Below, one piece after another: positions 17,572 to 19,602 of a DNA stretch of 64,000 bases; position 1 is the first letter of the stretch; the number at the start of each line of letters is the position of its first letter. A program made the translations under genes and the position numbers. The notes below the pieces were generated by a model. That model saw only the letters and a program-made list of their open reading frames with translations. It had not been told where the DNA came from and did not search any database. The stretch lies in the sequence record PP989838.1, one strand, 5' to 3'. Origin of the DNA: Escherichia phage VTCCBPA_211.

Positions 17572-19602
17572 ATTTGTGGCATCGTATTAGCTGGCGGTAA
17601 TCTGTCAAGCACCGATTTAGACGTATTCAACCAACTCTTTTATGCTGGAGTATTCCGAGGACAACACTCCTCTGGTATCTTTGGTCAGCGTAAAAGTACT
17701 AAGGAAGTCTTCACTTATAAAGAAGCTCTTCCTTCTTTCGCATTCATCCTACAAGATGAGTACAAGAAGCACACCACCGGTGAAACAGCTTACACTGTAG
17801 CACCTTCATGGATTGTTGGTCACAGCCGTCATGCAACGAAAGGTGCAGTTAACGCCAAGAACGCCCATCCTTTCCAACATGGTAACATCACTCTGGTTCA
17901 TAATGGAACCTTGATGGACCAAGATCTGTTACCTGACAGCAAAAACTTCGAGGTAGACAGTGAGAACATCTGCCACTCTATTAACACTATTGGTGCAGCA
18001 GAGACTATTCAAAAGCTGGATGGTGCTTTCACCTTAATCTGGCATGATGCTTCTGATAACCGTCTTCATATCATCCGTAACGAAGAGCGTCCTTTCCATC
18101 TCGCACGTTGTAACAGAGATTGGTTTGGTGCTTCTGAAGAAGATATGTTGATGTGGATTCTGAAGCGTTCTAAGTCCCATAAGAACCGTATTGACGAGCA
18201 TTTTGAATGTAAAATTGGTACAGAATACATCTTTGATATGTCAAACAACAGTATGACTCTGGTTGAAGAGGTCGCCCACGAGCTTCCGGTTTTTACGGTA
18301 GCCAATCGTTGGGGCAATTATTACTCGAACAACTACAGCCAAAGCAACTATCAAAGTTCCTCAAAAAGCAGTACAAGCAATCCTTACGACACGAAGCCGG
18401 GCGTGACAGCGGCAGACGTTCGTCGAAGAAACGCAGTGGTAAGTCAAAACAAAATCGCAAGCGATCGAAACATTGATATTCGCCGCGATATGACTGTGGA
18501 AATCACTCCGCATGAGTTTGTTCCTTATGCAACTGCCGGTGCTGTTCCTTCTCGTGGTAAGATGATTGGTTATATCTACGATGAGAAATCTCAAGAGTAC
18601 ATCGAAGGTGATGTTCATAACGTAGATATTAAGGCTTATCAGGATGCCCTGAAAGACCCTAAAATTGTTTACCGTGGGACAGTATCCTGCATCTCCGAAG
18701 TCAATGCTATGGTCCGTTTAGTGATCACAGCAGGTCGTTTTGTTGACCCATCTCTGGAGAAAAAGGAGCCTGAGTCTACTACTGCTGACTTTGATGATGA
18801 TATCCCTTTTGACATGAATGATAGTTTCGTCAACAAGAATGGCGTTACTATCACTCGTAAATTCTGGGAAGCACACTCTCATGGTGATTGTGGTGGTTGT
18901 GACAAGCACATTGATTGGAAGGATGCACCTAAAGCAGTCTTCGCATATCAGTGCTATTGGCATACTGAATGTCTGGAAGGTTTGACTAAACCTAAAGATG
19001 AAGAAGAGGAGGAAACTCCTATTGGTGTTTGTGAAATCTGCGGTGAAGTTAAAACGGAGAATGAGTTCGATGAAGAACTTAGTCGTCTTCGTGGTGAAGA
19101 TATCTGTAAAGTCTGCGCTGTAGATGTAAAGAAGAAGGTATCTAATGCTACGATCAAAGATGGTTATGTCTGGATTAAAGCAACAGATACAACAAACGCC
19201 CGTCGTCCTGAGTTTGCTTTACGTGTAACTGAAGATATGATTGGTCGTATGACTGTATTACCTTCCTCAGCGAAACAGACAGGCATCACTCTGGAGGATG
19301 TTGTTGATGCTTATGTTGAGAAACGTAGCAACAGTATTTTTGCAATCTCAACTAAGCCAAAAAAGGAGGAACCTGCTGAGAAAGCAGGTGTGTTTCCTGA
19401 ATCACGAACAGCTCTCCGCAAAACTGTTGTCAGCTTCGACGGAAACCGAAGCACTGACTTCACCAAAGCCATGTGGTCAACCCTCGGATACTGCTCAGAG
19501 TGTTTTAAGCAGATTCCGTGGCGCGATGCTGAAAGTTGTACGCTTGGTTCTATGAATCAAGTTTATTGTAATTCTCCTAAATGTTCATTGAATAGAGGTT
19601 AA
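17572..19602 (+). CDS. class-II (Ntn) glutamine amidotransferase domain protein with Cys-rich C-terminal extension; apparent AUU start
   Basis: Frame opens right after TAG 17566-17568; AAA ATT TGT GGC ATC GTA gives (M)CGIVLAGG, the PurF/GlmS/AsnB-type Cys1 signature; HSRHATKGAVNAKNAHPF downstream; no ATG/GTG/TTG can precede Cys. Confidence 0.75.
   Translation: MCGIVLAGGNLSSTDLDVFNQLFYAGVFRGQHSSGIFGQRKSTKEVFTYKEALPSFAFILQDEYKKHTTGETAYTVAPSWIVGHSRHATKGAVNAKNAHPFQHGNITLVHNGTLMDQDLLPDSKNFEVDSENICHSINTIGAAETIQKLDGAFTLIWHDASDNRLHIIRNEERPFHLARCNRDWFGASEEDMLMWILKRSKSHKNRIDEHFECKIGTEYIFDMSNNSMTLVEEVAHELPVFTVANRWGNYYSNNYSQSNYQSSSKSSTSNPYDTKPGVTAADVRRRNAVVSQNKIASDRNIDIRRDMTVEITPHEFVPYATAGAVPSRGKMIGYIYDEKSQEYIEGDVHNVDIKAYQDALKDPKIVYRGTVSCISEVNAMVRLVITAGRFVDPSLEKKEPESTTADFDDDIPFDMNDSFVNKNGVTITRKFWEAHSHGDCGGCDKHIDWKDAPKAVFAYQCYWHTECLEGLTKPKDEEEEETPIGVCEICGEVKTENEFDEELSRLRGEDICKVCAVDVKKKVSNATIKDGYVWIKATDTTNARRPEFALRVTEDMIGRMTVLPSSAKQTGITLEDVVDAYVEKRSNSIFAISTKPKKEEPAEKAGVFPESRTALRKTVVSFDGNRSTDFTKAMWSTLGYCSECFKQIPWRDAESCTLGSMNQVYCNSPKCSLNRG

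Follow-up and report, generated by a model that had tools for sequence, protein, structure and literature searches.

The glutaminase gene and its start codon

The 64,000-nucleotide (nt) stretch of DNA analysed here, called the window in the following, is from Escherichia phage VTCCBPA_211 (sequence record PP989838.1). Positions 17572-19602 (+) of the window hold a single open reading frame (ORF) of 676 codons plus stop. It codes for a glutaminase with a long C-terminal extension, the tail; the mature protein is predicted to have 675 amino acids (aa) and to begin with a cysteine (Cys1). The DNA around the gene is 97-98% identical to that of Kuravirus phages of E. coli and Shigella (PGN6866, SU10, ES17, phiEco32, and others; 97 records), which are C3-morphotype podoviruses of the subfamily Gordonclarkvirinae. 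The gene and the cluster to which it belongs are known, widely sequenced, and already described as a phage gene cluster; the protein is not an orphan.

An earlier note on this stretch, made from its letters alone (the sequence-only reading), had described an amidotransferase with a long extension at positions 18350-19602, which correspond to residues ~260-676 of the ORF. The extension and its three cysteine clusters (CGGCDKH...YWHTEC, CEICGEV...CKVC, and CSECFKQ...CNSPKC) are indeed found in the translation of 17572-19602.

In a program-made ORF list, the glutaminase frame begins only at TTG 17911 (563 aa). The frame is open from an in-frame TAG (17566-17568) onwards and has no ATG, GTG, or TTG ahead of TGT (17575-17577), the codon of the catalytic cysteine. 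The 676-codon ORF therefore requires the ATT at 17572-17574 as its start. This ATT is the codon directly 5' of the Cys codon, so that the cysteine becomes the predicted residue 1 (predicted N-terminus CGIVLAGGNLSSTDLDVFNQLFYAGVFR), and every N-terminal nucleophile (Ntn) amidotransferase needs a cysteine in this place. A Shine-Dalgarno (SD) sequence, AGGTGGA (17558-17564), is located 8 nt 5' of the ATT. For SU10, a 2031-nt coding sequence (CDS) identical in extent has been annotated by RefSeq (gp085), and SU10 gp85 was detected by mass spectrometry with 9 peptides, among the early products (PMC4281155).

The ATT, the SD sequence, and the hairpin upstream of it (AAGGG-TTTA-CCCTT) are identical in SU10 and in Suseptimavirus SU7. 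A distant metagenomic relative (L004) has kept the ATT and the SD sequence, and its copy of the hairpin has one extra, compensating A-T pair. In more distant relatives (L010-L016), an ATG stands directly before the Cys codon (ATG-TGT). Judged from these comparisons, the 676-codon ORF is real, with the ATT as its predicted start. The fusion of glutaminase and tail is unbroken in each of 97 phage records and also in every full-length family representative retrieved by an exhaustive profile search (see below); there is no sequencing frameshift by which the tail would turn out to be a separate protein, an outcome for which the sequence-only reading had allowed. The match to PHROG 4736 (E=4.3e-201) covers residues 1-517, and the last ~160 residues fall past this 498-position profile.

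The glutaminase leader of ~60 nt is near-invariant across genera whose coding sequences diverge by ~30%. It also contains a conserved terminator-like hairpin (GGGTGCC...GGGGCAC) which lies 5' of the AAGGG-TTTA-CCCTT hairpin (window 17490-17577; L001 5990-6080, L002 3560-3650, and L004 ~2050-2150). The conserved leader and the rare ATT start suggest that the gene may be under translational control, for which the AUU start of infC provides a parallel. An alternative leader hairpin that sequesters the SD sequence (RNAfold) was rejected; L004 does not have it, and the z-score overall is only -1.77.

Public names for the protein vary (GlmS, aminotransferase, glutamine amidotransferase, or hypothetical), and some records split it into up to four CDSs. 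Downstream starts have been used in the SU7 RefSeq entry (ATG), in the original 63.8-kDa call for SU10, and in many metagenomic gene calls, and the catalytic Cys1 is thereby lost. Several metagenomic gene calls of the family lack the MCG N-terminus.

The N-terminal region scores 55.1 bits with Pfam GATase_6 (cut-off 27). When the family profile is aligned to the glutaminase domain of E. coli GlmS (1xff), R85, T88, N110-G111, and D128 correspond to R73, T76, N98-G99, and D123 of GlmS. In GlmS, R73 and T76 form the Arg/Thr glutamine-binding motif and N98-G99 the oxyanion hole, and D123 also counts among the glutamine-binding and oxyanion residues. The catalytic and glutamine-binding residues are invariant in 12 homologue clusters. 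Residues 1-240 thus make up a complete class-II glutaminase domain, with Cys1 as the predicted nucleophile, exposed after initiation at the ATT.

A homologous N-terminal glutaminase with Cys1, the Arg/Thr glutamine motif, the Asn-Gly oxyanion hole, and the Asp is present in GlmS, PurF, AsnB, and GltS. Class-II amidotransferases are textbook two-domain enzymes in which the glutaminase is fused to a synthase that has an ammonia channel. The four enzymes bear such a fused synthase (SIS, phosphoribosyltransferase, or AsnB synthetase), which is fed NH3 by the channel, whereas the phage protein has a predicted OB fold, a linear motif, and putative zinc fingers instead. EgtC, a stand-alone gamma-glutamyl amide hydrolase, has the fold in common with the phage glutaminase but is itself devoid of a C-terminal tail.

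The family-specific NCBIfam models of known class-II amidotransferases miss on the phage protein by about ten-fold in score. The GlmS models reach 42.1 bits versus 381 (NF001484, profile positions 2-199 of 601 only) and 35.7 versus 418 (TIGR01135), and those for PurF, AsnB, and EgtC reach 25 versus 350, 21.3 versus 267, and 20.5 versus 218.65, respectively. All of these models touch the glutaminase part alone, and a SIS isomerase domain was not found in the protein by Pfam. The public name GlmS ("L-glutamine-D-fructose-6-phosphate aminotransferase") is unsupported, given the scores far below cut-off and the missing SIS domain. That the architecture is not the one of GlmS, AsnB, PurF, or GltB, as the sequence-only reading had stated, agrees with the scores of the GlmS, PurF, and AsnB models (21-42 bits versus 267-418), with the lack of any Pfam match in 28 tails, and with PDB profile matches that are restricted to the glutaminase.

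The modular C-terminal tail

The structure of the tail was predicted with AlphaFold, once in a full-length model (12 sequences; predicted local distance difference test score, pLDDT, 71) and once for the tail only, using a 28-sequence alignment derived from the matches of a hidden Markov model (HMM) search (pLDDT 88.4). The tail begins with a Ser/Asn/Tyr-rich linker (RWGNYYSNNYSQSNYQSSSKSSTSNPYD), found just where the sequence-only reading had placed it, after the amidotransferase domain. It continues with a basic helix, an OB fold, and an acidic linker, followed by three Cys/His modules (Zn modules 1-3) and an alpha/beta domain (X2). A poly-Glu linker precedes Zn module 2, and a further linker separates X2 (to residue 595) from Zn module 3 (from residue 613). 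Coordinates are given in Table 1. According to sequence and models, the tail strings together small modules that fold separately and are joined by disordered, mostly acidic linkers; it contains no synthase-like domain.

The predicted Zn ligands of the three modules do not vary at all among 12 homologue clusters with identities as low as 45%, so the cysteine features of the tail are not due to chance. Trp431 of Zn module 1 is invariant as well, and the modules fold confidently in the tail-only model. The cysteine clusters had been likened to zinc ribbons by the sequence-only reading, and we consider the three modules to be putative zinc fingers or ribbons on the basis of sequence and model. The two internally similar segments that it had also mentioned proved to be the first and the third module (BLASTP E=1e-4). 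In distant homologues, the module-1 portion of the profile matches the terminal module, too.

Database searches returned no known domain for the tail. No Pfam family was found with the window protein, with five sub-segments at E up to 10, or with 28 family members; no Pfam zinc-finger family was above threshold in the tail, where only sub-threshold noise was seen. No match of the tail to NCBIfam models was found, PHROGs searches yielded no known domain for it, and PDB sequence searches with the single sequence and with profiles found nothing outside the glutaminase region. A known synthase domain in the tail, the other outcome for which the sequence-only reading had allowed, was thus rejected, all four resources (Pfam, NCBIfam, PHROGs, and PDB) being empty apart from zinc-finger noise.

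The OB assignment was checked on the model, which has a b1-b2-b3-alpha-b4-b5 barrel with structural likeness to known OB domains. In BFVD, the structures that match the tail best belong to its own family (Cronobacter phage GAP52 and Aeromonas phage LAh_9); various OB proteins of phages come next. The predicted OB fold is solid at the fold level and points to no particular OB family. Derivation of this domain from SSB was rejected, the likeness being at fold level only: hhalign against E. coli SSB gives a probability of 0.3%, and there is no match to Pfam SSB (PF00436).

To survey the family, a profile of the tail was searched exhaustively against 1.84 billion cluster representatives, which resulted in 41 matches. 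Two of them are exceptions, a fragment of 52 aa and an FN3-repeat protein that was matched spuriously; all others follow an N-terminal region of ~250 aa of the glutaminase type. In this search, the predicted OB-plus-zinc tail is exclusive to glutaminase fusions. The smallest tail of the family consists of one OB and one zinc module (L016), and larger members repeat OB or zinc modules. Zn module 3 is the conserved C-terminal module of the family and occurs in most representatives. The X2 domain is confined to the Kuravirus-like clade: profile positions 250-320 are covered by P0013-P0015 and the close homologues only. When the tail was compared with cultured phages by tblastn, Kuravirus and Suseptimavirus alone matched. 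Real copies were not found in bacterial genomes or prophages; the contig scan gave three short contigs which are probably contaminants.

Residues 405-412 of the acidic linker (DFDDDIPF) are identical to the C-terminal octapeptide of E. coli SSB. When E. coli SSB is compared with the window by tblastn, the SSB tail alone aligns ("KEPESTTADFDDDIPF" vs. "NEPPMDFDDDIPF"). The C-terminal hexapeptide of SSB, DDDIPF, is highly conserved and is the docking site of many genome-maintenance proteins (PMC5872125). In the phage family, D408, P411, and F412 are invariant among the homologue clusters, and D409 and D413 are nearly so. A more general motif, acidic-x-PF-[D/E], occurs in the tail of 13 of the 39 family representatives (50% identity level), while shuffles that preserve composition have it in a mean of 0.08 and a maximum of 2 (500 trials). 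Its position shifts among members, being in the linker before or after Zn module 1. Because the motif recurs at shifting positions in disordered acidic linkers, it is of the type of a short linear docking motif.

Bacterial SSB consists of an OB fold, a disordered linker, and the acidic tip DDDIPF; the phage tail has these in the same order, with zinc modules nearby in addition. Unlike in bacterial SSB, the phage OB domain is without sequence homology to it and acidic, the tip is internal, and the whole module, known here from sequence and model, is fused to an enzyme. A looser parallel is T4 gp32, which has an OB fold, zinc, and an acidic C-terminus. An SSB homologue elsewhere in the window was not found (tblastn with E. 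coli SSB detects the tail motif only), and the SU10 annotation has no SSB gene; the phage replisome therefore probably uses host SSB. The SU10 annotation also lists a "DNA binding protein" ORF (window 28548-29159), which looks Dps/ferritin-like, and its L004 orthologue (12550-13065) matches Pfam Ferritin.

From sequence and model we regard the protein as a class-II glutaminase in which the synthase half is apparently replaced by a targeting tail, an unusual architecture. In contrast to the gene and its cluster, the tail is without annotation. In the literature searched, which did not include Iyer et al. 2009, we found no description of the OB fold, the SSB-tip motif, or the ATT start of this glutaminase.

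Table 1. Features of the glutaminase gene and neighboring genes in the window (residue numbers refer to the mature protein).
Feature	Positions	Strand	Remarks
COOH-NH2 ligase type 2	14959-15765	+	Pfam PF14395
Conserved 205-aa protein	15775-16392	+	PHROGs; synteny
Amidoligase_2	16389-17492	+	Pfam PF12224
Translation-initiation region	17543-17574	+	Hairpin AAGGG-TTTA-CCCTT 17543-17556, SD 17558-17564, in-frame TAG 17566-17568, ATT 17572-17574
Class-II (Ntn) glutamine amidotransferase/glutaminase domain, residues 1-240	17575-18294	+	Cys1, Arg85, Thr88, Asn110-Gly111, Asp128
Low-complexity Ser/Asn/Tyr-rich linker, residues 241-282, predicted disordered	18295-18420	+	Composition; pLDDT <50 for 239-281 (full-length model)
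Basic helix, residues 283-300 (net +4), then predicted OB fold, residues 301-395 (net -4)	18421-18759	+	b1-b2-b3-alpha-b4-b5, five-stranded barrel
Acidic disordered linker, residues 396-415	18760-18819	+	Contains DFDDDIPF 18787-18810 (residues 405-412), then Asp413; pLDDT <50
Zn module 1 (putative), residues 416-472	18820-18990	+	b-b-alpha with Trp431, CxxC knuckle C439/C442, H463/C466 at helix start; treble-clef-like
Poly-Glu linker, residues 473-483	18991-19023	+	Precedes Zn module 2
Zn module 2 (putative), residues 484-528	19024-19158	+	Cys4 ribbon/knuckle C486, C489, C511, C514, then long helix
Alpha/beta domain X2, residues 529-595	19159-19359	+	pLDDT ~90-96
Zn module 3 (putative), residues 613-675	19411-19599	+	Module 1 paralogue; W634; C640, C643, C655, C665, C670
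DUF7195 protein	19607-19840	+	Downstream partner
74-aa ORF	19821-20045	+	Downstream partner
RimK/MptN-like ATP-grasp Glu ligase	20048-21241	+	Closest to RimK/MptN alpha-L-glutamate ligases
GGACT gamma-glutamyl(amine) cyclotransferase	21748-22167	+	Small ORFs between ATP-grasp and GGACT

The amidoligase cluster and the adjacent replication genes

The gene codes for the glutaminase of the phiEco32/LUZ24-type phage amidoligase cluster, with identical neighbors in identical order. The order is: two unknown proteins, COOH-NH2 ligase, the 205-aa protein, Amidoligase_2, glutaminase, DUF7195, a small ORF, ATP-grasp, small ORFs, and GGACT. Directly after GGACT, and on the same strand, genes for a primase-helicase, an exonuclease, a nucleotidyltransferase, and a dCTP deaminase follow. 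Relatives with as little as 36-44% identity preserve the cluster order, which was seen in SU10, SU7, L004, L007, and L010-L016; the upstream partners (14959-17492) are syntenic in L007 and L010-L016. Besides Kuravirus and Suseptimavirus, LUZ24-like Pseudomonas phages have the cluster, as do relatives that infect Cronobacter and Aeromonas.

This type of cluster was reportedly described by Iyer et al. in 2009 (Mol Biosyst). For LUZ24-like Pseudomonas phages, a syntenic cluster with a glutaminase of 486 aa has been published (PMC3890496). A later paper sums up the proposal of Iyer et al. as a cell-wall modification that prevents superinfection (PMC10580990). Secondary sources name only "amidoligase and GATase" and the cell-wall hypothesis.

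The ATP-grasp protein (20048-21241) has a C-terminal extra domain of its own (~80 residues, PHROG 20552), which follows an acidic linker; it is the second cluster enzyme with an appended module. The primase-helicase gene (22387-24916) is split into a Toprim part (22387-23637) and a DnaB_C part (24371-24916) by an insert of ~730 nt, while the SU10 gene is one 1791-nt CDS. The insert carries an ORF for a homing endonuclease (HNH_3/NUMOD4/HTH; 23743-24273), which is flanked by sub-threshold Rfam group I intron matches (23625-23910 with 32.1 bits and 24099-24321 with 27.7 bits; gathering score 50). Judging from these matches, the insert probably represents a group I intron that harbors the homing endonuclease.

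After the replication genes, the region 25412-27382 codes for a nucleotidyltransferase resembling CCA-adding enzymes and for the dCTP deaminase. The authors of the BASEL collection noted that nucleotidyltransferase and dCTP deaminase might indicate an unknown DNA modification in this phage group, which is resistant to restriction-modification (RM) systems (PMC11990801). Four paralogue-like ORFs of 65-69 aa, three of them in tandem (27586-27783, 27783-27992, and 27992-28201) and one at 29677-29886, have in common an N-terminal MKK.W, a central ..TR..AR..KK, and a C-terminal Y(Y).

Possible roles of the glutaminase and its tail

We tentatively favor the reading that the protein is the in-trans glutaminase of the amidoligase cluster and that its tail is a tether. 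The glutaminase would split glutamine, and the NH3 would go to the adjoining ATP-dependent carboxylate-amine ligases (COOH-NH2 ligase, Amidoligase_2, and ATP-grasp), which are the likely acceptor enzymes. Alternatively, the Ntn domain may cleave a gamma-glutamyl amide as EgtC does, which would fit the GGACT gene; beside this gene, a hydrolase role rather than ammonia transfer is chemically plausible. Either way, the acceptor chemistry would take place in trans, as in two-subunit amidotransferases.

A comparable logic is found in GatD/MurT, the pair for lipid II amidation (PMC3267633). Here, too, a glutaminase (GatD, of the class-I or triad type) and an ATP-dependent carboxylate-activating ligase (MurT, a Mur-ligase) are encoded side by side. 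In contrast to that pair, the phage glutaminase is of class II, and the ligases with which it would pair are glutamine-synthetase-like or ATP-grasp.

The tail would act as a tether or scaffold and not as a catalyst; that it is an acceptor or synthase domain at all is very unlikely. Through its SSB-tip-like motif, the enzyme set would dock to host or phage proteins of replication and repair which bind the C-terminus of SSB; cluster subunits, a target protein, or nucleic acid would be the macromolecular partner held by the OB and zinc modules. Because the motif is exactly that of host SSB and the position beside replication genes is fixed, proteins that bind the SSB C-terminus are the most likely partners of the tail.

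Several points weigh against this reading. The structurally characterized pockets for the SSB C-terminus engage the terminal Phe by its alpha-carboxylate (PMC3159472), but DFDDDIPF is internal in the phage protein (residues 405-412 of 675), with Asp413 next, and not at the extreme C-terminus. We conjecture that the Asp or Glu right after the motif Phe might supply a substitute carboxylate. About two thirds of the family representatives are without the motif. As only about one third have it, the motif cannot be essential to the core function of the family. With a net charge of -4 and a pI of 5.1, the OB domain is acidic, which argues against ordinary binding of single-stranded DNA (ssDNA); the whole tail is acidic, too, and the only basic parts are the preceding helix and Zn module 3. 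The earlier cell-wall proposal for the cluster, as summarized in PMC10580990, needs no link to replication. Finally, every functional step of the model has been deduced from sequence and predicted structure.

A somewhat less probable explanation, which we consider doubtful, is a small-molecule or cell-envelope pathway. The ligases and the glutaminase would build or amidate a peptide, a gamma-glutamyl metabolite, or a peptidoglycan precursor, and the tail would only assemble or regulate the multi-enzyme complex, with the SSB-like motif binding a cluster protein and not replication factors. The two glutamine-synthetase-like ligases, the RimK/MptN-like Glu ligase, and GGACT point to gamma-glutamyl or amide metabolism, the acidic OB domain and acidic linkers suit protein-protein contacts better than DNA contacts, and the lack of the motif in two thirds of the family is easily accommodated. 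It is also the explanation with a prior published proposal for the phiEco32 cluster (cited in PMC10580990). An unrelated partner, however, would hardly explain the eight-residue identity to the tip of host SSB, with its recurrence in divergent members, or the constant position beside replication genes. In addition, the sequences of the cluster proteins, judged without a formal test, gave no hint of secretion or membrane signals.

It is unlikely that the cluster is a DNA-modification machine coupled to the replisome. In that case, it would write an amide-linked or amino acid-derived modification on phage DNA or on nucleotides at the fork; the tail would recruit the ammonia-generating subunit to the replisome or to ssDNA at the fork, and the restriction resistance of Gordonclarkvirinae would be explained. 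The OB fold resembles nucleic acid-binding OB domains, zinc fingers and an SSB-tip motif are typical of replication proteins, and the genes for primase-helicase, exonuclease, nucleotidyltransferase, and dCTP deaminase adjoin the cluster without exception and share its strand. On the other hand, the OB domain is acidic, and neither the window nor the SU10 annotation revealed a recognizable enzyme of base modification (hydroxymethylase, glycosylase/Tgt, or aGPT-Pplase); nor does any analytical evidence show Kuravirus DNA to be modified. To our knowledge, amidoligases acting on DNA are without precedent. Gordonclarkvirinae have been reported to be remarkably RM-resistant without a known modification pathway (PMC11990801), which speaks for this explanation.

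Even less probable is a role of the tail as a decoy, independent of catalysis. The exposed DFDDDIPF-D would compete with host SSB for ExoI, RecQ, PriA, Ung, and others and thereby disable repair, restart, or defence. An exact and conserved host SSB tip in a disordered, accessible linker would be suited to this, as would the probable use of host SSB by a phage for which no SSB gene is annotated (SU10) or detected by tblastn (window). Yet the internal motif does not offer the terminal carboxylate used by known pockets, one copy per enzyme makes a poor stoichiometric competitor of the abundant, tetrameric SSB, and the motif is not universal in the family.

We dismiss as hardly credible an artefact, either a separate C-terminal gene joined by a sequencing frameshift or a true start at TTG 17911 of a protein that is not an amidotransferase: the ORF program, many deposited annotations, and metagenomic gene calls do start downstream, but invariant catalytic residues are encoded in the stretch between ATT and TTG, in more distant relatives the Cys codon immediately follows an ATG, and a frameshift is already refuted by the unbroken fusion in 97 phage records and all family representatives.

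Database entries which name the protein GlmS, or which cut off the catalytic Cys by a downstream start, should be corrected. If the tail docks on SSB-binding proteins or ssDNA, a widespread cluster would be linked to DNA replication and the current cell-wall hypothesis would be challenged. The cluster would then also be a testable candidate for the cause of RM resistance in Gordonclarkvirinae, for which no DNA modification is known.

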